Origin: Bacteroidota bacterium
Lineage (GTDB): Bacteria > Bacteroidota > Bacteroidia > Bacteroidales > JAAAOM01
Direction: 5' to 3'
DNA length: 64,000 nucleotides
Assembly: GCA_009908855.1 (NCBI GenBank)
Contig: JAAAOM010000011.1
Location: 52,974 to 116,973 of the forward strand
Shown here piece after piece: positions 5,545 to 34,885 of this stretch; position 1 is the first letter of the stretch; every line of letters starts with the position of its first letter. The translations under genes and the position numbers were made by a program. Below the pieces are notes generated by a model. The model had not been told where the DNA came from. It made no database searches and saw only the letters and a program-made list of their open reading frames with translations.

Positions 5545-6345
5545 TTACTTTTCCATCATTTTCTTTTTTAGTTGTTTCACATCGTTTTTTAATTCGGCAA
5601 TGGTTTCAATAAGGGTTGACACATCAAAGGTCTTCGGAATATCATCGTGGAGGTCAAAACAGGTATATCCCCGGGCTTTCCATACTTCAATAACCTGGTC
5701 GGCCTGAATGGTGCAGGGTTTGTATTCAGGGTTGTCGGATTTCAGTACCAGCTCGCCATCCTGCAGGTTATTGATCAGGCGTTTGTACACAATGCCTTCG
5801 TCTTTGGTAACCAAAACATAGCACATTTCATTTTTAATGTTGTGCCAGTCCTGCTCATATTCACAAATAATATAAGCCCTGGGAGGCACCGGTAGCATAC
5901 TTTCGCCGGCAATCTGAAACAACCGGTATGTACGGTTATGAGCAAGCTCAGGGTAGGGCAGGTTGAATTTGGGCAGGCTTTCGATAAAATCAACATCGCC
6001 ATACCCTTTTGTGTACCCGGCGCTGGCTTTTACCGGCACCAGGGTGCTAAGTTCTTCTTCCGTGGTGCGGTCGGTTACAACGGGCAGTATCCGTAATTGC
6101 CGGCCTTTTATATCGGGTGGCCGGGTTTGTTGAGGGTGTTGCTGCAAATCGGTACGGATCAGATCATCCACGGAGATTGAGAAATAATGCCCGATGGCCA
6201 GTAGTGTGCGCAATTTCGGCTCCACCCTTCCTTCTTCATAAGCTCCTACCAGTGTGCGTTTAACACCAATTTTATTGGCTAACTCTTCCTGGGTTAACTT
6301 TTTGTTTTTTCGCAACCATCTGATATTTGATCCTAAAAAATGCAT
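5545..6345 (-). CDS. XRE-family HTH repressor fused to an S24 (LexA/CI-like) autopeptidase domain
   Basis: N-terminal HTH (LTQEELANKIGVKRTLVGAYEEG), a possible Ala-Gly cleavage site (KASAGY), catalytic Ser in GESMLP and Lys in VYKRL. Confidence 0.85.
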   Translation of the reverse strand: MHFLGSNIRWLRKNKKLTQEELANKIGVKRTLVGAYEEGRVEPKLRTLLAIGHYFSISVDDLIRTDLQQHPQQTRPPDIKGRQLRILPVVTDRTTEEELSTLVPVKASAGYTKGYGDVDFIESLPKFNLPYPELAHNRTYRLFQIAGESMLPVPPRAYIICEYEQDWHNIKNEMCYVLVTKDEGIVYKRLINNLQDGELVLKSDNPEYKPCTIQADQVIEVWKARGYTCFDLHDDIPKTFDVSTLIETIAELKNDVKQLKKKMMEK

Positions 6346-6397
6346 AATAAAATTTTAATGCTAATATAATAAGAATTCTAATAAAAATAGATAATTT

Positions 6398-6411
6398 AAC
6401 ATAATTATGTT
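6398..6411. promoter_or_regulatory. Perfect 14-bp palindrome AACATAATTATGTT, candidate operator in the divergent S24-repressor / SRAP promoter region
   Basis: Self-complementary by inspection. It lies 53-66 nt upstream of the repressor ATG (6345, minus) and about 130 nt upstream of the SRAP ATG (6542). Confidence 0.3.
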
Positions 6412-6541
6412 TCTTTTGTATTTTTAACCTAATTTCAGTAATGGTTTTAAATAAATTAGCAAATATCATTGCGAGATTTAGCTGTTACCAAACTTGAAAC
6501 TGTTAAAGCAGAATTATAATTTATGTAATAAATATATAGTT

Positions 6542-7348
6542 ATGTGTTACTATTCCTCTATGGATTACAATGCCCGGGTACTCGAACAGGAGCTTAGAAA
6601 GCCCTGGAAAATTAAACAGGATACGATGTATCAACAAAGTTTTTTAGCGGCGGCAAACGGGTATAATTACGGTGTAAAACTACCGGCAGTTACCATACAG
6701 GATCAGGCGATTGAGTTGATGGAATGGTCGTTGTATCCGGGTATGCCACCGGATATTGCTAAAAAAGTAAGGAATGGCACCTACAATTGCAGGAGTGAGG
6801 AGGCAACACAGAAGAAATCTTTTAAAGGCCCGATTAATAAAGGGCAATTCTGCCTGATCCCTTCATCGTGGATTTTGGAATTTCATACAATACCTAAAAA
6901 GATAACCGGCGATAAAAAGGATTTAAAAATTCCCTTCAGGATCACTAATAAGGAAGGCTTTTTTGCCATTCCGGGATTATGGAATCCTTATAAAAATGAG
7001 CAGGGTGAAATTGTAAGATCATTCACCATGCTTACCAAACATGGGGGAGAGGTATTCTCAAAAATTCACAATGCACCCCGATTTAGCAGGGACTGTCGCC
7101 AGGTTGTAATGTTTGGTCGCGAATATTGGGATGCCTGGCTGGATGACAAATTTTTGTGGGACGATCGGTTGGAATTAATTGAGGAAGGGGTGATAAAAGA
7201 TGAAGAACTGGTGTTTCATCCTGTGCGACACCCGAATAAAATAAGAAACATCAATATTCCGGAAATGAAAGAGGATTATCGGGAATATGAAGGAATTGAC
7301 AAAATCCAGTATCCTGAATTGTTGGATTCGTTCCCAAATACATTATAA
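6542..7348 (+). CDS. SOS response-associated peptidase (SRAP / YedK-HMCES family)
   Basis: Start placed at ATG 6542 so that the protein begins MC (the catalytic Cys2 typical of SRAP). Also YNCRSEEA (N.R.E motif), a FTMLT core and a C-terminal WLD segment. The ORF-track start at 6494 would bury the Cys. Confidence 0.7.
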   Translation: MCYYSSMDYNARVLEQELRKPWKIKQDTMYQQSFLAAANGYNYGVKLPAVTIQDQAIELMEWSLYPGMPPDIAKKVRNGTYNCRSEEATQKKSFKGPINKGQFCLIPSSWILEFHTIPKKITGDKKDLKIPFRITNKEGFFAIPGLWNPYKNEQGEIVRSFTMLTKHGGEVFSKIHNAPRFSRDCRQVVMFGREYWDAWLDDKFLWDDRLELIEEGVIKDEELVFHPVRHPNKIRNINIPEMKEDYREYEGIDKIQYPELLDSFPNTL

Positions 7349-7381
7349 ATAAACCGGAATTATGCTGTATGTCTCACTTAA

Positions 7382-9544
7382 TTATTTGTTTGTATAATCG
7401 AATTCCGATTGCAGCCAAATATGCCTGGAAGATGAACCGATTAACACCTGAAATTTACCTGATTCGGCCGTCCATTTCTTTTCGTTGGGATCCCAAAAGG
7501 ACAAGTCTTCTTTATTAATATTTAATGTTATTTTTTTATGTTCTCCGGGTTGTAAATGTATTTTGGCAAAGTTTTTAAGCTCTTTTAGCGGTCGCAATAC
7601 AGTGCTCTCGGGATCGCTGATATATAACTGGGCAATTTCTTTACCCGCGCGGCTGCCGGTATTTTTCACTGTAAAACTTACCATGATTTCCTCATCGCCG
7701 TTCGGTTTGTTGTTTGACAGTGATAAACTATCGTATTCAAAGGAGGTGTATGACAATCCGAAGCCAAACGGATAAAGCGGTTCAATATTTTTGGTGTCGT
7801 ACCAGCGATAACCAATTAGCACACCTTCATCGTAATGAATATCATACACATCTCTTTGGTTTTCATCATCATCATTCCAACCTGTATATAATTCCTCTCC
7901 TTCAGGAATATAACCATAGCCTGGTGAGTCTTTGAATGATTTTTCGATCGAAATGGGCAGTTTTCCTGAAGGATTTACCTGGCCTGCTAATATCTCGGCC
8001 AAGGCCACATTGCCGTTTTGCCCTGTGTACCAGGCATACAGAATGGCTTTGGCTTTATCGTTCCAGGCAGTCATGTCTATACCGCCACCTGAATTTACTA
8101 TAACAACAGTGTTTTCGTTGTTGTTAAGTACTTTTTGAATAAATACAGAATCTTCGCGTGGCAGTTCGAAAGGACGATCCCGGGCTTCACTATCTTCGGT
8201 ACCAACACTTAACAATACCAGGTCGGCATTGGCTATTGTCCATCTCCCCGGATTTCTGCGAATTTTGAGTTTTGTGCCAAATGCATCGGCACATGCTTTG
8301 GATAAGGAAATATTATCGTAGCCTTCCACATGAGCTGCTCCACCGCCTTTGTGAATTTTATCCGTGAATTTACCGGTTAGCAATATGGTTTTAACGGTAT
8401 CTGACCGGATGGGCAATAGGTTATTTTTATTTTTTAGCAATACAATGCCTTCTCTGGCTGTTTGCAACGCGTGGTTTTCATGATTGGCAAAACGGGGGAC
8501 ATACTTCTCCGGTTCGGCTTTTTTATTATATAATTCCATGGCCACGCAGGTTGCAATGATATTTTTTACCATACGGTCGATATCAGACTCCTGAACCTTG
8601 CCGGATGCTAACAGCTCTTGGGCATTGGTAGCCGCAATGGTATAGGGCATTTCTATATCCTGGCCTGATTCTATGACTTTTTGGCCATCATATACACTCC
8701 ACCAGTCAGTCATTACCAGCCATTTGAACCCCAATTCTTTTCGTAACAGGGAATCAATTACATATTTACTTTGTCCGGCCCACTCACCATTTACCAGGTT
8801 ATAGGCTGTCATAACGGCCATTGCACCGGCCTCAATACCTGCTTTGAAGGCTGGCATGTAAATTTCATGCAACGTACGCTCGTCGACAACCGAATTGCTT
8901 TTACGTCTGAAATAATCGGTATTATTGGCCACAAAGTGTTTCAGGGTAGCGATCACTCCTGTTTCCTGAACACCCAGTACGTATTGCTCAATCATTTTTC
9001 CGGCCAAAAAAGGGTCTTCACCAAAATATTCAAAGTTTCGACCACATTGTGCATGTCGATACATATTCATACCAGGGCCCAGCAATATACCAATTCCGGC
9101 TGCGCGGCATTGTTCGCCAATGCTATGCGCATAATGACGGGCCAGGTCGGGATTCCAGGTGGAGGCCAATGAAATGGCTGCGGGAAAAGAGGTGGTACTG
9201 TCAATGGCTTGATTGTATTCAATGGTTGTATCCCTGGATTTATCGTAGAATTTATCACGTAAGTTTACACCCATCGTGGCATCCGACATGAAAACCCGCT
9301 TAATGCCCAAACGCTCAATAGCCTGGGTATAAAAGATATCTGCCCCTCCAATAAGCATTATTTTTTCTTCTGTTGTCATGGCTGCTACCAGGCTGTCGGC
9401 CTTATTCATGGCCTCATTGTAGCTCACCGGTGGTTCAAATAATGGTTTCGATTTCATGTCTTTTGTATTAACAATGGTGCATGATTGCAGGATACTAATG
9501 GATGCAAGGAGAATAACGGGTGTGGTAGGAATTATTATTTTCAT
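7382..9544 (-). CDS. Glycoside hydrolase family 3 (beta-glucosidase-like), lipoprotein
   Basis: 720 aa. Signal peptide with SILQSC lipobox, GH3 N-domain with the VMTDWWS nucleophile region, a C-terminal alpha/beta domain and an Fn3-like domain. Confidence 0.9.
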   Translation of the reverse strand: MKIIIPTTPVILLASISILQSCTIVNTKDMKSKPLFEPPVSYNEAMNKADSLVAAMTTEEKIMLIGGADIFYTQAIERLGIKRVFMSDATMGVNLRDKFYDKSRDTTIEYNQAIDSTTSFPAAISLASTWNPDLARHYAHSIGEQCRAAGIGILLGPGMNMYRHAQCGRNFEYFGEDPFLAGKMIEQYVLGVQETGVIATLKHFVANNTDYFRRKSNSVVDERTLHEIYMPAFKAGIEAGAMAVMTAYNLVNGEWAGQSKYVIDSLLRKELGFKWLVMTDWWSVYDGQKVIESGQDIEMPYTIAATNAQELLASGKVQESDIDRMVKNIIATCVAMELYNKKAEPEKYVPRFANHENHALQTAREGIVLLKNKNNLLPIRSDTVKTILLTGKFTDKIHKGGGAAHVEGYDNISLSKACADAFGTKLKIRRNPGRWTIANADLVLLSVGTEDSEARDRPFELPREDSVFIQKVLNNNENTVVIVNSGGGIDMTAWNDKAKAILYAWYTGQNGNVALAEILAGQVNPSGKLPISIEKSFKDSPGYGYIPEGEELYTGWNDDDENQRDVYDIHYDEGVLIGYRWYDTKNIEPLYPFGFGLSYTSFEYDSLSLSNNKPNGDEEIMVSFTVKNTGSRAGKEIAQLYISDPESTVLRPLKELKNFAKIHLQPGEHKKITLNINKEDLSFWDPNEKKWTAESGKFQVLIGSSSRHIWLQSEFDYTNK

Positions 9545-22438: not shown

Positions 22439-24430
22439 TTAAGTATTTAAGCTTTTACCCAATATTTCGGTTACATCATCCTCTAAAAGCACTTCATTTT
22501 CAAGCAGGCGATTGGCCATTTGATCCAGTTTATCTTTGTGCTTTTCAAGCATTTCACGTGTTTCATTATAACAATCGTTAATGATACCCTGGGCTTCGGC
22601 ATCAATTACCTGCTCGGTTTTTTCAGATCGCTTATCTACCATTAACTGATTGCCCAGCATTTCATTTTGGTTTTGCTTTTTAAATGATACGTTGGGCAGT
22701 TTTTTGCTCATGCCATATAATGTAACCATGTTGTAAGCCATCTGGGTCACCTTTTCCAGGTCGTTTGCCGCCCCGGTTGATATATCCCCGAAAATAAGAT
22801 CCTCAGCTGCTCGTCCGCCTAGCAATCCTTTGATCTTGCCCCGGATTTCTTTTTCAGACATTAAAAACCGGTCTTCCAGGGGTGTTTGCATGGTAAAACC
22901 TAAAGCGGCAACCCCCCTGGGCACGATGGATACTTTTTGTACCGGGTCAGCGCCCGGGGTATAATGCCCCACAATGGCATGGCCTGATTCGTGGTAGGCC
23001 ACAATTTTTCGTTCTTTTTCGTTGATCAGGCGGTTTTTCTTTTCCAAGCCGGCAACAATGCGCTCAATAGCTTCCTGTAAATCGGACAATTCAACTTCGT
23101 TTTTGTCCTTTCGTGAAGCCCATAAGGCGGCTTCGTTACAGATATTGGCCAGGTCGGCGCCCGAGAAACCGGCTGTATTGGCAGCTATTTTATGCAGGTC
23201 TTCTTCATTGGCCAGCTTGATATCTTTGGTATGTAGCTTAAGGATATCGTAGCGGCCTTTTTTATCCGGGCGGTCAACCATTACCTGTCGGTCAAAACGG
23301 CCGGGCCGCAGCAGTGCTTTATCCAATACTTCCGGCCTGTTGGTGGATGCCATAACAATGATGGTATCGTTGGCGGTAAAACCATCCATTTCAGATAGCA
23401 GTTGATTTAATGTATTTTCACGTTCATCATTGGCGCCCATTTGTACATTTTGTCCGCGACTTTTACCTATGGCATCCAACTCATCGATAAAAATGATACA
23501 AGGTTGTTTGCTTTTGGCCTGCTTAAAGAGATCGCGCACGCGTGATGCACCTACACCGACAAACATCTCAATAAATTCAGAGCCGGTAAGGCTAAAAAAG
23601 GGCACATCGGCTTCACCGGCTACAGCCCTGGCCAGCAATGTTTTTCCTGTACCCGGAGGGCCAATCAGTACGACTCCTTTTGGTAATTTGCCGCCCAGTC
23701 GGGTAAATTTTTCAGGTGTACGCAGAAATTCAATCATTTCCTTCAATTCTTCTTTGGCTTCATCTACCCCGGCAACGTCTTTAAAGGTAACATCGTTTTC
23801 CTTGCTTTTAACATGCATTTGGGCTTTGCTTTTTCCAATATTAAAGGGGTTTTGCATACCTCCGGCTCCCCCGCCCATTGTTTTACTCATGCGACGAATA
23901 ATGAAAGCCCATATCAGAATGAAAAACAAAATAGGAATGATCCATCCCAGTGCTTCACGCCAAAAGGTGTTTTCCACACGGCCTTCATAGTTAACATTGT
24001 ATCTTTCAAGCTGATGGATTAAGCTGTCATCCTGCACACGAACGGTTACAAAATCATAACCTTCACCACCGGAGGCCTTTTGACGTATGCTTTCAATTTT
24101 AGGCATTGTGTCGGGTTGCGGCATACCACGGGTATCAAATCGTTGATATCGTCCCATGATTTCATTTTTTCCGATACTCACTTTTTCGATGGCACCAGAT
24201 TTCAGCGTGTCTTTAAAAGTCTTATAACTTATTTCATTGGTTTGCTTAGGATAAAAAAACCATTGTATAACTATGAAAACACCTATGAATGCAAGATAAT
24301 GCCAGATTTTTATCCGTGGCCCCCTGCCTGGTTCCTGGTTTAAATAATCATTACCAGTGTTTTGTTGGTCTTGCTGTTGCTTGTTGTTCTGTTGATCTTG
24401 TTGCTTTTGTTGCTTTTGTTGCTTTGCCAT
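22439..24430 (-). CDS. ftsH: ATP-dependent zinc metalloprotease FtsH
   Basis: 663 aa. Walker A GPPGTGKT, Walker B IIFIDELD, an SRH region and the HESGHA zinc motif. Unusual Q/K-rich N-terminal tail. Confidence 0.95.
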
Positions 24431-25808: not shown

Positions 25809-26756
25809 TTAATAGTTCTCTTTCTTACTCAAATCAGCCGTTGTTACTTCATCACAAGGCACCTCATAATCGTAATAGCCTTCCACTTCCTTATAAAATA
25901 ACAGCGGACCAAAAGCACCATGTCCCTGGTGTTTTTCATAATAGCGTGCTGATTTCAATGTGCATTTGTCTTCAGCTGTCCAATAATAGGCCACCGTAGC
26001 TATGAGGTTCCGGTGTGTTATATTACCATTATCATCGGTAAAATAGGTCCAGTCACCTTCCATATCGGTAATTACTGCATCAATAGGAAACGCTCCTGTA
26101 TACAACTCTGAACTAGCATCAACAATCCTGTCCTCGATTTGTTGACTTTCAATGGTTGATGGGGGTAGATCCGAAGTTTTTCGGTCTTCATAAGCCATTA
26201 ATTCATTTTTATCTAATTTGAATTTGAATGTACCCGATGCTACTACCGGAAGCTCTTTTTGGGCTATATCGGGATAAATGGGCACAAACTCTAGTTTGAT
26301 GGTATGCATGCCTTCTTCATATTGCTTTAGTAATTCCATCCATTGCATTATGAGCGGAAAATGTTGTTGCGTAACATCTTCCTTTTCTGAAGCCAGTGCA
26401 TGTCGAACAACGGTTTTGGAATCAAAGTCGTTTTTGGGCATTTCTACCAGGAACTGGCCGTCAAGTTTACCGTCAACATATACTCTCAGGCCATAATTAT
26501 AGGTGTAAGTGGCATCGCTGAAATCGTAAGCATAATTATGCTTGTTATAAATATCCTCTAATGTACCGGGTAATGTTGTTTGCATGTAAAGTTCATCGCC
26601 CACTTCAAATGTTTTTTGGGTATTTTTCGAAAATTCCCCGAAAGAATCTGAAAATGTAATCTTGCCTCCGTTGGCATAAGTCATTGCCGAAGTGACCATT
26701 ATAACCACTAGTGTAATGATTTTTAGTAATCCTGAATTATTTTTCTTTGTTTTCAT
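25809..26756 (-). CDS. Hypothetical secreted protein
   Basis: 315-aa ORF with an N-terminal signal peptide (LLKIITLVVIMVTSAMTYA). No family recognised. Confidence 0.6.
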   Translation of the reverse strand: MKTKKNNSGLLKIITLVVIMVTSAMTYANGGKITFSDSFGEFSKNTQKTFEVGDELYMQTTLPGTLEDIYNKHNYAYDFSDATYTYNYGLRVYVDGKLDGQFLVEMPKNDFDSKTVVRHALASEKEDVTQQHFPLIMQWMELLKQYEEGMHTIKLEFVPIYPDIAQKELPVVASGTFKFKLDKNELMAYEDRKTSDLPPSTIESQQIEDRIVDASSELYTGAFPIDAVITDMEGDWTYFTDDNGNITHRNLIATVAYYWTAEDKCTLKSARYYEKHQGHGAFGPLLFYKEVEGYYDYEVPCDEVTTADLSKKENY

Positions 26757-27143
26757 AACTTCAATTTTAAAAATTCTACAATAGAATGAAAAACATCATG
26801 CCAACATCCTGAAATCCGGGTTTTAATTTTATTAAAATCATACCTGCATCGGCAGTTATCCGTTAAACCAGGGTGGTTATTAAAAAGGGTAATAAATTTG
26901 GATATGTATTGTAGAAAATACTCTACATCCTGTGGTAAAACTATAAGAGCTGATATATACTTTTCTATCTGTAACCGGGTAATACTTTAAACAGATTGGC
27001 TACAAATCTGCCGGTTGTGCCGATTGGGAGTAATTGTTAAATTCTTTTAAACTGCTGAATATGTATGACTTGTTTTTCTGCTGGCAGGATTTTGGTAAAT
27101 GAGACAACGAAATCTTACTATGTTGAATCAAACAAAAAGAATT

Positions 27144-27731
27144 ATGAAAATCATGAAAACTACACTAATTGTTTTAACCTTGTTTATAGTGCAAACCGGA
27201 TTTAGTCAGTCAACCACCTGGAAATTTGACAAAAACCACTCAAAAATTGAGTTCAGCGCCGTACACATGGGTATTTCAGAAGTAACCGGACAATTTAAAT
27301 CTTTTGAGGGAACGATAAAAGCTGACAAAGCTGATTTTACGGACGCTGAAGTTAACATTGCCATTGATGCCTCCAGCATTGATACCGACAATGAAAAACG
27401 AGACGGACATTTAAAAGGAGAGGACTTTTTACATGTCGGGGAATACCCCGAGATAAAATTTGATGGTAAATCCCTTAAAAAAGTCAAAGGAGACAACTAT
27501 AAGCTAACCGGCGATCTTACCATTCGCGATGTGACCAAAACAAAAACCTTTGATGTAATTTACCGGGGAACCGTGGAAGCTATGGGCAACACCATTGCCG
27601 GGTTTAAAGTCACAGGCACTATTGATCGTTTTGAATTCAATGTAGATTGGAATCAAAAATTTGCCAAAGGACTGATTGTGGGTGAAGAAATAGGAATTAC
27701 CTGTAATATCGAACTTATTAAGGAAAAATAG
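27144..27731 (+). CDS. YceI family periplasmic protein
   Basis: Start at MKIMKTTLIVL gives a signal peptide. WKFDKNHSKIEFSAVHMGISEVTGQF and D.R.GHLK..DFL are typical YceI segments. Confidence 0.85.
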   Translation: MKIMKTTLIVLTLFIVQTGFSQSTTWKFDKNHSKIEFSAVHMGISEVTGQFKSFEGTIKADKADFTDAEVNIAIDASSIDTDNEKRDGHLKGEDFLHVGEYPEIKFDGKSLKKVKGDNYKLTGDLTIRDVTKTKTFDVIYRGTVEAMGNTIAGFKVTGTIDRFEFNVDWNQKFAKGLIVGEEIGITCNIELIKEK

Positions 27732-27892
27732 TTGTAGAATAATTACACTATTTGCTTAATTAAGGGATTATTAGTTTGCTCGATTATTAATTAAAACATT
27801 GGCAATCTGATATTTAAAAAATCATTGTAAGGACTGTATTTAGAAGTGGCACGATATTATTATAAATGCAGTAATTATTATAATAACTAAAA

Positions 27893-28360
27893 ATGAAAAT
27901 TTTAATTATGAAAACACCACGTAAATTAATTTTTAAAACAATGATGACAGCAACATCTTTCATTATGCTTGTTGCCTGCGGACAATCAGGAAATAATCAG
28001 GATACATCGGATGGAATATCGGATGTTAAGGAAGAAGTAAAAGAAGTAGGTGATGCCATTGAGCATTCAGCAAAAACCGGATCAGAAAATTTAAAAGATA
28101 AAGCTCATTCTGTTTTCGATGAATTTGAAGACAAAGCGGATAAGCTGGAGTATAAAATCGAAGAATCGGGTGAAAAGCTTGATACGGAAGTTTCTCAACA
28201 GCTGGAAAGTCTTAAAGACCAAAAACGTGAATTAGAACAGCGTTTGGAAAGCATGAGTGAACAAACAGGCGAAAATATTAAGGATAAAAAAAGTGAACTT
28301 GAAAAAGACATTAAAAATTTCGGCCAGGCGGTTGAAAACTTTTTCAAAGACAACTCTTAA
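27893..28360 (+). CDS. Hydrophilic coiled-coil lipoprotein (hypothetical)
   Basis: Lipobox LVAC, then a highly charged E/K/D-rich helical sequence. Confidence 0.6.
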   Translation: MKILIMKTPRKLIFKTMMTATSFIMLVACGQSGNNQDTSDGISDVKEEVKEVGDAIEHSAKTGSENLKDKAHSVFDEFEDKADKLEYKIEESGEKLDTEVSQQLESLKDQKRELEQRLESMSEQTGENIKDKKSELEKDIKNFGQAVENFFKDNS

Positions 28361-28381: not shown

Positions 28382-28436
28382 ATCCCGGAAGGTTTATCAT
28401 AAAATATTACATGTTAAACCTGCCGGGATTTTTTTC
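28382..28436 (+). terminator. Rho-independent terminator
   Basis: ATCCCGGAAGGTTTA (28382-28396) pairs with TAAACCTGCCGGGAT (28415-28429) with 1 mismatch, followed by a T-run. Confidence 0.65.
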
Positions 28437-28487: not shown

Positions 28488-29504
28488 ATGACCACTTTTA
28501 ATCGTATACCAAAGGAAACAAATCAGAACGGAGCAAAAAGAAAAATCGGCTTTGAACTTGAGTTTGCCAATCTCAATATTGATCATGCAACAGCCCTGAT
28601 TATGCAATTATATGGTGGTGAGAAAGAGGTTTTTAACCGGTATTTTTCAAAAGTAATAAATACGGAATTGGGGGATTTTTCAGTTAAATTAGATGCCAAC
28701 ATATTATATGAGAAAAAGTATGGCAAGGCCATTTCGCTGCTAAACGAAATAAGTCAAAATCACCTACCCGATAAACAATGGGAAAAAGGCATTGAAGAGT
28801 TGTTGGAGAAAATATTCAGTTCTGTTGTGCCGTATGAAATTGTTGCACCACCGGTTACTTTTGATCAACTGGACCGTCTTGAAGAACTGAGAAAATCGCT
28901 TTATGAAAAGGAAGCCAAAGGTACTGAACAATCAACATTTTATGCTTTTGCAACCCATATAAATACGGAAGTCCCCGAATTAAACATAGAAACAATTTTT
29001 ATCTATCTGAAGGCATTCCTGCTGTTGTATCCATATTTACTGGAAAAACACAAAACCAATATAGCACGGAAATTAACACCTTTCATAAATCCTTTTCCTA
29101 AAAAATATGTCCGGCAAATATTAAAAAGTGATCACCCCCCGTCAGTCATTGAATTTATTGATAATTACCACCATTACAATCCTACCCGAAACCGACCGTT
29201 GGATTTATATCCTGTACTGGCCGTTATGGACGGTGAGAGAATACATTCATTCAGGCACATTGGCAACGTTAAAAAAAGGCCTACATTTCATTACCGATTA
29301 CCCAACAGCAGTATACATCTTTCAAACTGGTCATTGGCACGTGAATGGAACAGTTGGTGCCTGGTTGAAATCCTGGCTCAGGAACCGGATATAAGGCATG
29401 AAATGACACACCGATATTTAACGATCATGCGCAAAAATTGGTATAATCCTGAACATAAATGGAAGGAGGAATCAGAAAAATGGATCCGGGAAAAACTATT
29501 ATAA
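28488..29504 (+). CDS. Putative amidoligase (Amidoligase_2-like, glutamine-synthetase-fold family)
   Basis: 338 aa. N-terminal KIGFELEF strand and an overall resemblance to the Pfam putative amidoligase family, recalled from memory. Characteristic partner gene immediately downstream. Confidence 0.55.
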   Translation: MTTFNRIPKETNQNGAKRKIGFELEFANLNIDHATALIMQLYGGEKEVFNRYFSKVINTELGDFSVKLDANILYEKKYGKAISLLNEISQNHLPDKQWEKGIEELLEKIFSSVVPYEIVAPPVTFDQLDRLEELRKSLYEKEAKGTEQSTFYAFATHINTEVPELNIETIFIYLKAFLLLYPYLLEKHKTNIARKLTPFINPFPKKYVRQILKSDHPPSVIEFIDNYHHYNPTRNRPLDLYPVLAVMDGERIHSFRHIGNVKKRPTFHYRLPNSSIHLSNWSLAREWNSWCLVEILAQEPDIRHEMTHRYLTIMRKNWYNPEHKWKEESEKWIREKLL

Positions 29505-30298
29505 AAACACCACGCATTGGAATTACCGGGCCCGATACCGGTGGAGGGGCTGCATGGTTGTTTACATCCTTATCTGTTCGATTGGCCGGTGGCAAGCCAA
29601 TTCGCATAAGACCCATGAGGCCTTCACGCGGGAATAATATTCACGGACTCATTCTTGGCGGTGGCGCTGATATTGACCCCAGGGCATACACAGAGGATCA
29701 TTTTATTACCGAATACCTGAATCAGACGCTTCGCGATACCCGTAAATCATTTTTTTACAGGATATATTATTTTATAAGATGGTTTTATTATCCGGTTGTA
29801 TTTTTACTTCGTAAATTGCTCAGTAGAAAGTCGGGTAAAGGTGATAAAGCACGAGACGAACTTGAATTTCAGTTGCTTAAAAAGGCAGTGGAGAACAAGT
29901 TACCCATAATGGGGATATGCCGTGGTGCTCAGCTTATTAATGTGTTTTTTGAGGGTACGCTTTTTCAGAATATCAATCAGTTTTATTTTGAGGAGCCGAA
30001 TAAACACAGCATTTTTCCGGTAAAAACCATTTATATAAAGCCCGATAGCAAACTGCATAAACTACTGGGAGAAAAAGAATTAAAGGTTAACGCCCTGCAC
30101 AACCAGGCAGTGAAGGAAAAGGGCAAACAACTTGATATTGTGGCCTATGAACCGAATTCGGTTGTGCAGGGTATCGAAGCCATCAAAGATCAACTAATTT
30201 TTGGTGTACAATGGCATCCTGAATATTTGTTATTACACAAAAATCAACGAAATTTATTTAAAGCTGTTGTACAATATGCCAAAGCGGATAAAAAATAA
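29480..30298 (+). CDS. Gamma-glutamyl hydrolase-like class I glutamine amidotransferase / peptidase C26 family protein
   Basis: GICRGAQLINV nucleophile elbow and GVQWHPE His/Glu. The start (29459 or 29480) overlaps the amidoligase 3' end by 25-46 nt. Confidence 0.8.
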   Translation: MDPGKTIIKTPRIGITGPDTGGGAAWLFTSLSVRLAGGKPIRIRPMRPSRGNNIHGLILGGGADIDPRAYTEDHFITEYLNQTLRDTRKSFFYRIYYFIRWFYYPVVFLLRKLLSRKSGKGDKARDELEFQLLKKAVENKLPIMGICRGAQLINVFFEGTLFQNINQFYFEEPNKHSIFPVKTIYIKPDSKLHKLLGEKELKVNALHNQAVKEKGKQLDIVAYEPNSVVQGIEAIKDQLIFGVQWHPEYLLLHKNQRNLFKAVVQYAKADKK

Positions 30299-30404
30299 AA
30301 TAAATATGAAACAAGCATGATAAAAATAATTATTAACTCATACGACAATGATTATTTTTCATCATGCGGTTCCATCTGACAATTGAAAAATAAATTATAA
30401 ACAG

Positions 30405-31532
30405 ATGAAAGGTGATATAAAAATCCTGAACTCATTTACATTTCGTGCTGCCATTGTGTTATTGGCACTGGTATTATTTACATTTAGCGTTATAAAAGCA
30501 CGGAATTTTTTATATCCCATAACCTTGGGATTTCTATTGGCATACCTGTTATTTCCGCTTGCTAATTTGCTGGAAAAAAATAAATTTCCGCGCATTTTAT
30601 CCATCATTATAAGCATTATTGTAGGTGTGGTAATTATCGGTAGTGTGGTAATGTTTTTTTATTCCCAGTTGACCATTTTGTTTGATGATTTTGAAAGCCT
30701 CAAAAAGAGTGCAAACCGTAATATAGAAACTTTGCAACACACCTTATCCGAAACATTTGGCATTACCGATAACCGTGTTGAGGTATTTCTCAAGAAACAG
30801 GTTAGCACTTTTTTCCAGTTCAGCAACCAAAGCCTTCAAAAACTATTTTCAAGCACAACCGGAACCATTTTCCGAATTGGTATACTACCGGTTTATGTTT
30901 TTCTGTTTCTGTATTACCGTACCAAATTTGCGTATTTTATTTTGAAGAAAGTAAGCAAAAAGCACGAACGCCTGGCACTTAATATTTTGAGAGACATTTC
31001 AACCGTTGCGGCAAAATATATGGGAGGTGTGAGTATTGTAGTATTTATTTTATGTATTCTCAACTCAACAGGTCTTATGATAATAGGGGTGAAATATGCC
31101 ATTTTGTTGGGAATTATTTCTGCAATATTTAATTTCATCCCATATTTTGGAACCCTTATGGGTGGTGCCGTTCCGTTACTTTTTGTGTTGCTTACATCGG
31201 CTGATCCGTCCACGATGGCTATTAGGGTTGTTGTGCTTTTTGTTATTATACAGTTTACCGAGAATAATATCTTAACCCCCAATATTGTGGGCGGATATGT
31301 TGACATTAACCCATTTTTTATTATTGTGGGATTAATTGCCGGCGGCATGATATGGGGTATACCGGGAATGTTAATTGTTGTGCCCATGCTGGCCATTGCG
31401 CGAATTATATTCAGAAATATTCCCGAACTGGAGGCTTACGCCTTTCTATTGGGTCCCAGAGGAACACAACAACATGCCCTGAGCTTTAAGAACATTAAAA
31501 AACTTGTAAAGTACCTGAAACCGAACAAATAA
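30405..31532 (+). CDS. AI-2E family transporter (PerM/UPF0118)
   Basis: 375 aa, multi-TM, with the conserved C-terminal block FIPYFGT...ENNILTPNIVG...INPFF. Confidence 0.85.
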   Translation: MKGDIKILNSFTFRAAIVLLALVLFTFSVIKARNFLYPITLGFLLAYLLFPLANLLEKNKFPRILSIIISIIVGVVIIGSVVMFFYSQLTILFDDFESLKKSANRNIETLQHTLSETFGITDNRVEVFLKKQVSTFFQFSNQSLQKLFSSTTGTIFRIGILPVYVFLFLYYRTKFAYFILKKVSKKHERLALNILRDISTVAAKYMGGVSIVVFILCILNSTGLMIIGVKYAILLGIISAIFNFIPYFGTLMGGAVPLLFVLLTSADPSTMAIRVVVLFVIIQFTENNILTPNIVGGYVDINPFFIIVGLIAGGMIWGIPGMLIVVPMLAIARIIFRNIPELEAYAFLLGPRGTQQHALSFKNIKKLVKYLKPNK

Positions 31533-31600: not shown

Positions 31601-32314
31601 ATGCCGCCTGCTATGTTGAAACAATGGTCTGTTTTTGTACTGTTCATTTTTGGTTCACTGTGTTTACAATCCTCGGGTGATAACAGTAACAATTATTTTT
31701 GGAAAACAGATAATAATCTGGATAGCATTTACTTTAACCGCTATCTGAATTTACAGGGTAACAAACCTGATTATCGTATATTTCTTTTGGCGATGCGTGG
31801 TTACGATAAATTAAAATCATCACAATTATTGTCCGATAAAAATATAATTTCCATCATTGATTATCGGTTGTCTTCCAATAAAGAGCGACTTTGGGTAATC
31901 GACCTTAACACAAACAGGGTGTTATACAATGTATTGGTTGCGCATGGCAAAAATACCGGTGAGGAATATGCTGTACAATTTTCAAATAACCAACGTTCAT
32001 GGCAAAGCAGTTTGGGATTTTTCATTACCGGAGATAAATACCTTGGAAAACATGGTTTATCGCTACGACTTGAAGGAATTGAAAAAGGTATTAACGATAA
32101 TGCCAGGCAACGGGCCATTGTTATGCACGGGGCCAATTACGTAAGTCATGCTTTCATTGAAAAAAACGGACGACTGGGAAGGAGCTTCGGTTGTCCGGCT
32201 GTTAGCTACCCGGTTCATAAGGAGATAATTGAGCTCATAGCCCGGCAAACCTGCTTATTTACCTATGCGCATCCCGAATACATAGCGCAATCGGAAATAC
32301 TGGCTGCTCCATAA
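31601..32314 (+). CDS. L,D-transpeptidase catalytic-domain family protein (YkuD_2-like)
   Basis: Signal peptide. IVMHGANYV...GRSFGCPAV catalytic His/Cys block. Confidence 0.75.
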   Translation: MPPAMLKQWSVFVLFIFGSLCLQSSGDNSNNYFWKTDNNLDSIYFNRYLNLQGNKPDYRIFLLAMRGYDKLKSSQLLSDKNIISIIDYRLSSNKERLWVIDLNTNRVLYNVLVAHGKNTGEEYAVQFSNNQRSWQSSLGFFITGDKYLGKHGLSLRLEGIEKGINDNARQRAIVMHGANYVSHAFIEKNGRLGRSFGCPAVSYPVHKEIIELIARQTCLFTYAHPEYIAQSEILAAP

Positions 32315-32437: not shown

Positions 32438-33556
32438 CTATTGCTTTTTATTGTCGGATGATTTATTAACTTTCTTACTTATATATTTCAAAAATGGTGT
32501 TTTTTTATAGCCAAAATCGCTGCTTAACAAAATGGCATAAGGTTCCAGCGATTCCACATGTTCAAAAATAACCTTTACGATGGCTATAAAAGGGATAAAC
32601 AATACCAATCCTGCTATGCCCCATAATACACCGCCTATCAGCAAGGCGAGGAGGGCAAAAAGCGGATTGATACTTACTCTTGAACCTACTATTTTGGGAG
32701 TAAGAATATTGCCCTCCAGGGTTTGTACCATTATATACCAGCTTACCACAAGCAATGCCGGTATAAGTGTTTCATTGTTTACTGCCGCATAAAGGGTAGG
32801 AAGCAGACCACCGATAAAAGTGCCAATATACGGGATGATGGCCAGGAACGCCGCAAAAAAGCCAAACAAAAACGGATAGTCAATTCCGATAATCCAAAGT
32901 CCAAAACCATTTAACAAACCCAATATCAGTATAATGAGAAACAATCCATAAAAATAGTGCTGGGCCACTTTCTGTATACTTGTCAAAACCTCTTCAATTT
33001 CCTCTTTTTTACGTTTACGTCTGAATTGATACAGAAAAAAATTCTTAAATGAGGTTCGGTACAGTAAAAATAAAAATGCATACACGAATACAAGTGCTAC
33101 ATTGGCCAGAAATGTAGTTGACAGGGTCAGGGTTTTTTCCAGAATGTTTATTGAATCGAAAAGCCTGCCTGATTTATTCTGCTTATAAAGCTCAATTAGT
33201 TCAACATTATTTCCGAGAATTTCAGCATCAATATAATCGATCATTTTTTTGGTAATGGCTTGTATATTATTACTAAAATCCTTTAAATTCTCAAACAGGG
33301 AGAAAAATTGCGAGCCAAAAAAATAAAACACACCGGTTAAAATGATAATAACCATTAAAAAGGCTACCAAAATTGCCGGTATTCGCATAATCCTTTTTTC
33401 CAGGTAATCGCATATCGGATAAAGCATAAATGCAAATAACAAGGCAAATGAAAGAGGGATTAATATTTGCCGGCCTACATAAAGCAAGCCCACGGAGATT
33501 GCAATTACCAACAGATAATTAACGATGCGGCCTAAATTTATACGGAATACACTCAT
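32438..33556 (-). CDS. AI-2E family transporter (second paralog)
   Basis: 372 aa with the same conserved block (IIPYIGT...EGNILTPKIVG...INPLF). Confidence 0.85.
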   Translation of the reverse strand: MSVFRINLGRIVNYLLVIAISVGLLYVGRQILIPLSFALLFAFMLYPICDYLEKRIMRIPAILVAFLMVIIILTGVFYFFGSQFFSLFENLKDFSNNIQAITKKMIDYIDAEILGNNVELIELYKQNKSGRLFDSINILEKTLTLSTTFLANVALVFVYAFLFLLYRTSFKNFFLYQFRRKRKKEEIEEVLTSIQKVAQHYFYGLFLIILILGLLNGFGLWIIGIDYPFLFGFFAAFLAIIPYIGTFIGGLLPTLYAAVNNETLIPALLVVSWYIMVQTLEGNILTPKIVGSRVSINPLFALLALLIGGVLWGIAGLVLFIPFIAIVKVIFEHVESLEPYAILLSSDFGYKKTPFLKYISKKVNKSSDNKKQ

Positions 33557-33822: not shown

Positions 33823-34167
33823 ATGTCAAAATCAACAAACACATTAGTTGGATTTATTTTAGGAGCAGCTGCCGGAGCAGCAGCAGGTATTTTACTGGCA
33901 CCCGATAAGGGCTCCAAAACGCGAAAAAAATTAAGTAAGAACATGGAAGACAGCACGGCTGAATTACGTCATAATATCGATGCAAAGGTTAAAGACCTGA
34001 AAGATTATATGACTGATTTTGTGGATGATGTAAAAGATCGATTCAAAAATCTTGAATCAGAAGTTACCGATAAAGCCAAAACGGCACAGAAAGAAACGGC
34101 ACAGAAAGTAAAAGACAGTGCTGAGAAAGTAGCCAGTAAAGCCTCACAGGCAGCTTCTTCTAACTAA
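33823..34167 (+). CDS. YtxH domain-containing protein
   Basis: N-terminal LVGFILGAAAGAAAGILLAPDKGSKTRKKL followed by a charged helical tail. Confidence 0.85.
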   Translation: MSKSTNTLVGFILGAAAGAAAGILLAPDKGSKTRKKLSKNMEDSTAELRHNIDAKVKDLKDYMTDFVDDVKDRFKNLESEVTDKAKTAQKETAQKVKDSAEKVASKASQAASSN

Positions 34168-34190
34168 TTCACATGTTTGGGAATTATTTT

Positions 34191-34247
34191 TCATCCGGAC
34201 TCTGTTGCTGCTATTACCTGCAAAAGCAGAGTGTGGATGATTTTTTT
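34191..34247 (+). terminator. Terminator-like hairpin with T7 run
   Basis: TCATCCGGACTCTG pairs with CAGAGTGTGGATGA (14 bp, 2 central mismatches), then TTTTTTT. Confidence 0.45.
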
Positions 34248-34273
34248 ACATCAAAAACAAATACGCTTTATAG

Positions 34274-34639
34274 ATGAAAGGAAAAACACTATCAGATAAT
34301 TTTGCTGAGTTAAATGAAATCGTAAGAAGTTATCTAAATGCCCGATATGATTACCTCAGAATACTTATTCTCGAAAAGCTAACGAAAATTGGTACATATT
34401 TTATCACCACCTTATCCCTGGTCACTATATTTCTGTTTGTATTGCTCTTTTTAACTTTTGCTTTTAGTTTTTGGTATAGTCAGCATGTTGGAGAAATATC
34501 TGAAGCCTTTCTGATTTGTGCCGGTTTTTACTTAATATTAGGCATCATCGTGTATGCTCTCAGGAAACCTTTATTTTCCGGCAGTATTGTAAGAAACATT
34601 TCAGATATATTATTTCCTGAAAACGAAGATGAAATCTAA
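34274..34639 (+). CDS. Small two-TM membrane protein (phage-holin-family-like; usual partner of YtxH genes)
   Basis: 121 aa with two long hydrophobic helices. The family call is from gene context and memory only. Confidence 0.5.
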   Translation: MKGKTLSDNFAELNEIVRSYLNARYDYLRILILEKLTKIGTYFITTLSLVTIFLFVLLFLTFAFSFWYSQHVGEISEAFLICAGFYLILGIIVYALRKPLFSGSIVRNISDILFPENEDEI

Positions 34640-34651
34640 AACACCTGTGAA

Positions 34652-34885
34652 ATGAGCAAAAAGTTTAAAAATTTTACTGAGGTTCTTGTGGCCAAAGAAC
34701 GTTACAAATACAAATTGAAAACCAAAGAAGAAGAATTACTTATTGGTGTTGACGAATTTCGATATGGCATACTTGATTCGGCCCGGAACTCAGTATTTAA
34801 AATGGGAACCAAAGCACTAACAGGATTGGTTATTAATCTTATAAGAAAAAGATACCGTAACCGGAAATCAAAAAGCGCCTCCTAA
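34652..34885 (+). CDS. Small basic hypothetical protein
   Basis: 77-aa ORF 12 nt after the previous gene. Third member of the YtxH cluster. Confidence 0.45.
   Translation: MSKKFKNFTEVLVAKERYKYKLKTKEEELLIGVDEFRYGILDSARNSVFKMGTKALTGLVINLIRKRYRNRKSKSAS

Follow-up and report, generated by a model that had tools for sequence, protein, structure and literature searches.

The stretch of DNA analyzed here (the window) comprises 64,000 nucleotides (nt) of contig JAAAOM010000011.1, positions 52,974 to 116,973, from the assembly GCA_009908855.1 of a member of the Bacteroidota (order Bacteroidales). At positions 28488–30298, two overlapping genes on the forward strand encode a putative amide ligase of the Amidoligase_2 family and a hydrolase of the peptidase C26 / class I glutamine amidotransferase (GATase)-like type. 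Both open reading frames (ORFs) had been proposed in an initial annotation made from the sequence, and both were confirmed. The features of the locus are listed below.

28382–28436, + strand: upstream hairpin followed by a T-run, with the stems ATCCCGG/CCGGGAT and AGGTTTA/TAAACCT
28488–29504, + strand: Amidoligase_2 gene, 338 amino acids (aa), Pfam E 3e-56, predicted ATP-dependent carboxylate-amine ligase
29480–29504, + strand: overlap of the ligase and C26 genes, 25 nt
29480–30298, + strand: gene of the peptidase C26 / class I GATase-like hydrolase, 272 aa (alternative start at 29459, 279 aa)
29693–29842, + strand: clade-specific insertion in the C26 protein, approximately aa 72–121, core FFYRIYYFIRWFYYPVVFLLRKLLS
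30315–30367, + strand: AT-rich hairpin in the spacer that follows the C26 gene, −20.6 kcal/mol, z = −4.7
30405–31532, + strand: gene of an AI-2E family permease, 375 aa, Pfam E 6e-56

The product of the first gene matched the Pfam profile PF12224 (Amidoligase_2) with 191.5 bits (cut-off 22) over residues 17–291, covering profile positions 2–244 of 245. This search bore out the family assignment made in the initial annotation, and the N-terminal GFELEF strand mentioned there is encoded at nt 28548–28565. The residues that are invariant in an alignment of homologues include E23, E25, E117, H157, N159, R234, N235, R236, R264, H268 and R270. In an AlphaFold2 model of the protein (predicted local distance difference test, pLDDT, 86.5), the invariant Glu, His and Arg residues are located on or beside predicted strands. 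They resemble the metal and phosphate sites of ligases of the glutamine synthetase (GS) type, which would be consistent with a metal/ATP site. NCBIfam contains no model that matched the ligase, and inspection of the sequences revealed no signal peptide on either protein of the pair.

The second protein matched the profiles PF07722 (Peptidase_C26; 143.7 bits, E 9.5e-42, cut-off 20.5) and PF00117 (GATase; 65.6 bits, E 6.2e-18), in agreement with its earlier classification. The Cys-His-Glu triad, which had been described as intact on the basis of the motifs GICRGAQ and QWHPE, is invariant in the homologues, and an alignment with PuuD of Escherichia coli placed Cys147 (codon 29918–29920), His246 (30215–30217) and Glu248 (30221–30223; numbering of the 272-aa form) on the PuuD triad. 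A structural model (pLDDT 79) superposed in Foldseek searches on Lin1909 (3fij, E 5.6e-18), PuuD (6vtv) and the glutamyl-thioester form of SpuA (7d50), and also on the GATase subunits of GMP synthase and PabA. The protein scored far below the NCBIfam cut-offs of the PuuD equivalog NF008471 (58.6 versus 266 bits) and of the gamma-glutamyl-CDP-amidate hydrolase equivalog (approximately 58 versus 250 bits). Two clade-specific traits, an N-terminal GITGPDxGG motif and an insertion of 35–40 residues rich in aromatic and basic amino acids, are conserved together across the clade. The insertion has no counterpart in the aligned PuuD and is predicted to form a helical hairpin (helices 91–100 and 103–114). 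The spacing between the GGxxD and CRG motifs in C26 homologues is bimodal, with either 78–88 or 44–50 residues.

As noted in the initial annotation, the overlap of the two genes amounts to 46 nt with the ATG at 29459 as the C26 start, or to 25 nt with the ATG at 29480. The shorter overlap is the likelier one, because the public annotation uses the start at 29480 (P0121, 272 aa) and because homology to relatives begins only at approximately residue 16–18 of the longer ORF. In most of the 68 loci where the N-terminal motif of the C26 protein was located, every possible C26 start lies 1–55 nt 5' of the ligase stop codon, and therefore the overlap itself is conserved. This gene arrangement implies that translation of the two genes would be coupled.

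The hairpin at 28382–28429, whose T-run extends to 28436, has a folding energy of −23.9 kcal/mol (z = −4.6), and none of 200 shuffled sequences was as stable. The hairpin that had been proposed as a strong terminator upstream of the pair was thereby confirmed. It likely terminates the upstream gene of 155 aa and forms the 5' boundary of the module, and it was missed by a simple terminator scan because its loop is long. The AT-rich hairpin downstream of the C26 gene is not followed by a T-run, and therefore transcriptional read-through is possible. The initial view of the pair as an autonomous two-gene operon is probably too narrow for this lineage, as a permease gene overlaps the C26 stop codon in the related locus L172 (see below). 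In GC content the pair does not differ from its surroundings, and Rfam and tRNA scans of the window gave no matches.

Conservation and fusion of the two genes

More than 1,000 significant homologues were found for each of the two proteins. For the ligase, these were 1,417 sequences at 90% clustering and, in an exhaustive profile search, 660 representatives at 50% clustering. Some relatives outside the window (P0250, P0303, P0259 and P0388) carry large internal insertions or long N-terminal extensions without a Pfam match; in P0250, the Amidoligase_2 match stretches over residues 17–463.

A scan of one genome per species found 573 ligase relatives, and the best 80 were kept for analysis of the gene neighborhood. 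These loci belong to Hymenobacteraceae (Rufibacter, Pontibacter, Adhaeribacter), other Cytophagales, Balneolales and a few Gammaproteobacteria (Alkalilimnicola, Thioalkalivibrio). A C26 homologue was detected by tblastn directly downstream of the ligase gene and on the same strand in 77 of these 80 best-matching loci, or in 65 of 67 after near-identical loci had been collapsed. The exceptions were two Pontibacter loci without a C26 gene and one contig that ends just 3' of the ligase gene. In a second set of 80 distant loci from metagenomes, the C26 gene was directly downstream in 37 of 42 loci after de-duplication. The pairing, whose conservation in other genomes the initial annotation had anticipated, holds in Cytophagales, Balneolales, Gammaproteobacteria, Polyangiaceae and Opitutales, and it is retained while the flanking genes vary. 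Given the homologues of both proteins and this conserved pairing, the pair is not a chance finding, and the window carries a typical representative of a large chromosomal clade.

No third gene is conserved across the 80 loci. No other family occurs in more than 15 of them, and the recurrences follow lineage; the families with such lineage-level synteny are LigA, OmpA-like proteins, SerA, Dabb and amidohydrolases. One recurrent neighbor is a gamma-glutamyltranspeptidase gene (PF01019, E 2e-162), which lies upstream of the ligase gene in divergent orientation, separated from it by 35–418 nt, in 11 loci of the genera Pontibacter, Telluribacter and Botryobacter (L006, L018, L020, L021, L023, L027, L031, L032, L034, L036 and L039; at approximately 6000–7900 in each). 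L034 is a genome without an adjacent C26 gene, and the window contains no gamma-glutamyltranspeptidase gene.

A role in anti-phage defense or as part of a mobile element was considered and rejected, as PADLOC gave no match, the ligase matched no PHROG family and the GC content is like that of the surroundings. A scan of viral contigs found no relatives of this ligase clade.

The two genes also occur as fusions. Three long relatives among the 660 ligase representatives combine an N-terminal Amidoligase_2 domain with a C-terminal Peptidase_C26 domain, and at least 48 clusters (90% identity) of such proteins, 511–620 aa in length, were found in several data sources; one of the fusions is named as belonging to an Opitutales metagenome-assembled genome. 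In the three fusion sequences that were inspected, both active sites keep their motifs, with an intact ExE strand in the ligase part and intact GICRG and QWHPE motifs in the hydrolase part. In addition, a GGACT (gamma-glutamylamine cyclotransferase-like) domain was identified at the C-terminus of one protein of the C26 subfamily (E 1.3e-11, above the Pfam cut-off). This protein is 40% identical to the C26 protein of the window, keeps the insertion and is encoded directly 3' of an Amidoligase_2 gene.

Proposed activity of the pair

We consider it about an even chance (probability of roughly 0.5) that the ligase and the hydrolase, probably in a complex with each other, act on a gamma-glutamyl-type amide. 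The module would be self-contained and cytoplasmic and would consist of two enzymes. Using ATP, the ligase would activate a carboxylate, most likely that at the gamma position of glutamate or of a glutamyl residue, and would join it to an amine. The triad Cys147-His246-Glu248 of the C26 protein would then cleave the gamma-glutamyl-type amide through a glutamyl-thioester, as in PuuD and SpuA, and thereby release or recycle the amine. The overlapping genes may ensure that the two proteins are made in a fixed proportion, probably as parts of one complex. Rather than running a catabolic pathway, the module would control how much of a gamma-glutamylated amine is present or would carry out a reversible modification with glutamyl groups.

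Four lines of evidence point to a gamma-glutamyl bond. The hydrolase groups with enzymes that cleave gamma-glutamyl amines; the GGACT fusion brings in another enzyme activity aimed at such amines; and a divergent gamma-glutamyltranspeptidase gene neighbors the pair in three genera. Finally, ligases elsewhere in the family adjoin genes of gamma-glutamyl cyclotransferases or glutamine amidotransferases (PMC11318856, PMC10945688, PMC10580990), and the recurring partners in the wider family all act on gamma-glutamyl amide bonds. The cycle of ligation and trimming on a gamma-glutamyl-type amide that the initial annotation had suggested gains indirect support, short of proof, from the ligase-C26 and C26-GGACT fusions.

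A number of observations argue against this interpretation. A search of the PDB with the ligase profile gave no match, even at E 10. A Foldseek search of the ligase model against the PDB ranked YbdK (GCS2) and glutamine synthetases on top, but with weak scores (E 0.18–2, TM-score of approximately 0.33); the GS-like fold named in the initial annotation was not confirmed beyond these top matches, which point in the expected direction (GS/GCS2) but are not significant. An hhalign comparison of the ligase profile with YbdK and PuuA of E. coli, a weak test with single-sequence templates, yielded nothing. The searchable literature contained no biochemical characterization of any Amidoligase_2 member, and most of its matches to "amidoligase" deal with CTP synthase or ATP-grasp enzymes. 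In Pontibacter harenae and P. ummariensis (L022 and L034; 8000–9010), a full-length ligase gene is present, but the 8 kb downstream of it contain no C26 gene. Across approximately 115 de-duplicated loci, the neighborhood of the pair shows no conserved oxidase or aldehyde dehydrogenase of the Puu type. The acyl donor need not be glutamate. Last, a ligase and a hydrolase acting on one bond would form a futile ATP cycle unless they were regulated. By analogy with the E. coli glutathionylspermidine synthetase/amidase (GspSA), whose product builds up when the amidase cysteine is oxidized, such a cycle could be avoided by regulation of the cysteine hydrolase or by separation of substrate and product across the membrane.

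The futile cycle would also be removed if the pair contributed the first and the last step of an amine degradation pathway of the Puu, Spu or Ipu type, with the oxidation enzymes encoded elsewhere in the genome. PuuD and SpuA are the closest characterized relatives of the hydrolase, and puuA and puuD are adjacent in E. coli, too. However, the lack of conserved oxidase or aldehyde dehydrogenase genes near the pair speaks against such a pathway, in which a fusion of the first and last of several enzymes would be odd. As the ligase is also unrelated in sequence to PuuA, and the score of the hydrolase with the PuuD model is far too low, we regard this explanation as improbable.

The GGACT fusion bears on a further explanation, a tagging system of the pupylation type, in which the ligase would add glutamate or a peptide ending in Glu to protein lysines or cell-envelope peptides and the C26 protein would remove it. 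GGACT enzymes act on gamma-glutamyl-epsilon-lysine, and a ligase with a dedicated thiol hydrolase that reverses its reaction corresponds to the logic of a reversible tag. Moreover, papers that cite Iyer et al. (2009) describe ligases of this family as candidates for the modification of proteins and cell walls with peptides (PMC10580990, PMC11318856). On the other hand, the pair has no conserved small ORF as a neighbor that might serve as a tag gene, and its spacers of 127 and 106 nt leave no room for one. The Bacteroidota loci contain neither a conserved third family nor genes of a proteasome or recognition type. According to the descriptions of the matched structures, the characterized C26 enzymes act on small molecules. 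The probability of protein or envelope tagging therefore appears low to us.

The main alternative to a ligase and a hydrolase with opposing activities is a two-subunit glutamine-dependent amidotransferase, which follows the logic of CTP synthase or MurT/GatD. Here the C26/GATase protein would hydrolyze glutamine and hand the ammonia to the ligase, which would amidate a carboxylate using ATP, and no futile cycle would arise. In favor of this alternative, the match of the second protein to the class I GATase profile is significant as well (E 6.2e-18), and its model superposes on the GATase subunits of GMP synthase and PabA. Tight coupling, a conserved overlap and fusions with the synthetase at the N-terminus and the GATase at the C-terminus are typical of such enzymes and are explained as well as by a ligase-hydrolase pair. 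In addition, phage relatives of the ligase adjoin class II glutamine amidotransferases (PMC10580990). Against this alternative, the Peptidase_C26 profile scored much higher than the GATase profile (143.7 versus 65.6 bits), and the closest structures are hydrolases of gamma-glutamyl amines rather than ammonia-donating subunits. A GGACT domain fused to this C26 subfamily would have no role in ammonia supply, and we know of no GS-like ligase with a GATase subunit. The gamma-glutamyl cyclotransferase partners elsewhere in the family do not fit either (PMC11318856). We thus see an amidotransferase as possible but on balance unlikely, and the formation and cleavage of a gamma-glutamyl-type amide as the preferred interpretation.

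Membrane-protein neighbors

Under the preferred interpretation, the ligase and the hydrolase would work at or with the inner membrane, as suggested by the AI-2E permease gene 3' of the pair and by the aromatic and basic helical insertion in the hydrolase. The permease is probably an accessory member of the module in this lineage and not part of a conserved core. The closest relative with a known context, L172, has a ligase that is 53% identical to that of the window, and the locus is syntenic with it, with the order YceI, small protein, ligase, C26 and AI-2E permease, followed by another AI-2E gene in opposite orientation. The start codon of the first AI-2E gene overlaps the C26 stop codon (ATGA), and its product is an orthologue of the permease of the window with 75% identity. 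Among the distant loci, AI-2E genes of other subfamilies, whose products are 20–24% identical to the window permease, adjoin the pair in 6 of 31 de-duplicated loci in several arrangements.

The window contains a second AI-2E permease gene (32438–33556, − strand), whose product is 34% identical to that of the gene at 30405–31532 (+ strand). The two are separated by a gene of a YkuD_2 L,D-transpeptidase (31601–32314). In L172 the two permease genes are directly adjacent and YkuD is absent, and therefore the transpeptidase gene looks like an insertion in the genome of the window. A link between the transpeptidase and the pair was rejected, as the gene is missing from this syntenic locus.

A different type of membrane protein, a small VTT/DedA-type protein of approximately 141–148 aa, is encoded 3' of the C26 gene in 23 of 37 de-duplicated distant loci. 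The same order of C26 and VTT genes occurs in Thalassocella, and in one lineage a VTT domain is fused to the ligase. At the locus of this fusion (L087, 3019–9301), a DAGK_cat/YegS gene, a LysR regulator and a CDP-alcohol phosphatidyltransferase are encoded within a few genes, which hints at a lipid context in this one lineage. In the window and in the Bacteroidota loci, tblastn searches seeded with VTT sequences detected no VTT gene close to the pair. The long-insert form of the C26 protein had a neighboring VTT gene in none of 79 loci, whereas the short form had one in at least 16 of 22. This pattern is suggestive of mutual exclusion between the insertion and the VTT gene, although the two states correspond to two clades and are confounded by phylogeny.

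Because of this either-or pattern (0 of 79 versus at least 16 of 22), we also considered that the pair might carry out a membrane-coupled reversible amide modification of a membrane-embedded or exported amine. A glutamyl or other acyl or aminoacyl group would be put on and taken off such an amine, which could be the head group of an aminolipid, a precursor linked to a lipid or an amine that is secreted. The small YqaA/DedA-type VTT protein or, in the clade of the window, the helical hairpin of the C26 protein could provide access to the membrane, and the AI-2E permease might move the substrate or the product. We regard this extension as quite doubtful.

Relation to described systems and further genes of the window

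Iyer, Abhiman, Burroughs and Aravind (2009; Mol Biosyst 5:1636) are said to have predicted a neighborhood of Amidoligase_2 and a GAT-like thiol peptidase computationally, and the family description reportedly noted this pairing for Proteobacteria. The pair in the window consists of the same two Pfam families in the same order and is a member of this computationally defined system. Compared with this scope, although the coverage of the 2009 work is uncertain, the pairing was detected here also in Cytophagales, Balneolales, Opitutales (as fusions) and others. The window clade differs from the neighborhood of 2009 by a C26 protein with the insertion and the GITGPDxGG motif and by the appearance of AI-2E and VTT partners. 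This study adds the conserved overlap, the extent of the fusions, the GGACT fusion, the AI-2E and VTT partners, and the alternation of the insertion with the VTT gene.

With PuuA/PuuD of E. coli and SpuB/SpuA of Pseudomonas, the pair shares the principle of an ATP-dependent ligase adjoining a C26 hydrolase of gamma-glutamyl amides, the fold and triad of which are common to these systems. In contrast to PuuA and SpuB, the ligase of the window does not belong to the glutamine synthetase family by sequence, and no oxidase or dehydrogenase is linked to the pair. The hydrolase differs from PuuD by its low equivalog score, a different N-terminal motif and the extra insertion, and the two genes overlap or are fused, whereas the puu genes are divergent. 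The ligase-C26 fusions are also reminiscent of GspSA, which unites an ATP-dependent amide ligase and a reversing cysteine amidase in one protein. As the folds of GspSA (ATP-grasp and CHAP) are unrelated, this likeness is an analogy and not a shared membership.

Amidoligases of phages and prophages (phiEco32-type phages, Arthrobacter phage Salgado) share the Pfam family of the ligase and resemble it in predicted fold. A Foldseek search of the ligase model against predicted viral structures (BFVD) retrieved such phage "amidoligases" at E 1e-5 and with 10–12% identity. The phage proteins adjoin enzymes that cleave gamma-glutamyl bonds (PMC10580990, PMC11318856, PMC10945688). These partners are class II GATases or gamma-glutamyl cyclotransferases, whereas the partner in the window is a C26 protein.

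Amidoligase_2 is a large family of bacteria and phages that lacks an assigned reaction and a solved structure. The pair is a simple entry point to this family, as it consists of two soluble enzymes and offers natural fusions for structural work, and the hydrolase type has already yielded a trapped glutamyl-thioester in SpuA. With AI-2E, VTT/DedA, GGACT and gamma-glutamyltranspeptidase as partners, the search narrows to gamma-glutamyl amines located at the membrane or close to it. Once the reaction is solved, thousands of genes now annotated as "amidoligase" or "PuuD family" would receive a function, and related phage genes that have been labeled auxiliary metabolic genes might be explained.

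Among the other genes of the window, a YceI-like gene followed by a small gene is located 5' of the pair (27099–28360); the small gene encodes a helical, apolipoprotein-like protein, probably with a lipoprotein signal. The same gene order occurs in L172 (3256–4307) and was not seen in the other 80 loci, and thus represents synteny at the lineage level. Further downstream (33823–34885) are small genes of a membrane or stress type, which encode a YtxH-like protein, a protein with a weak Phage_holin_3_6-like match and a basic protein of 77 aa; L172 contains small genes at the equivalent position, one of them with a weak Phage_holin_3_6 match. On the reverse strand, an ORF of 315 aa (25809–26756) starts with a signal-like segment and matched no Pfam family at E 0.001, and the ORF of an FtsH-like AAA protease (22439–24430) begins with an unusual tail of low complexity that contains many Gln, Lys and Asn residues.

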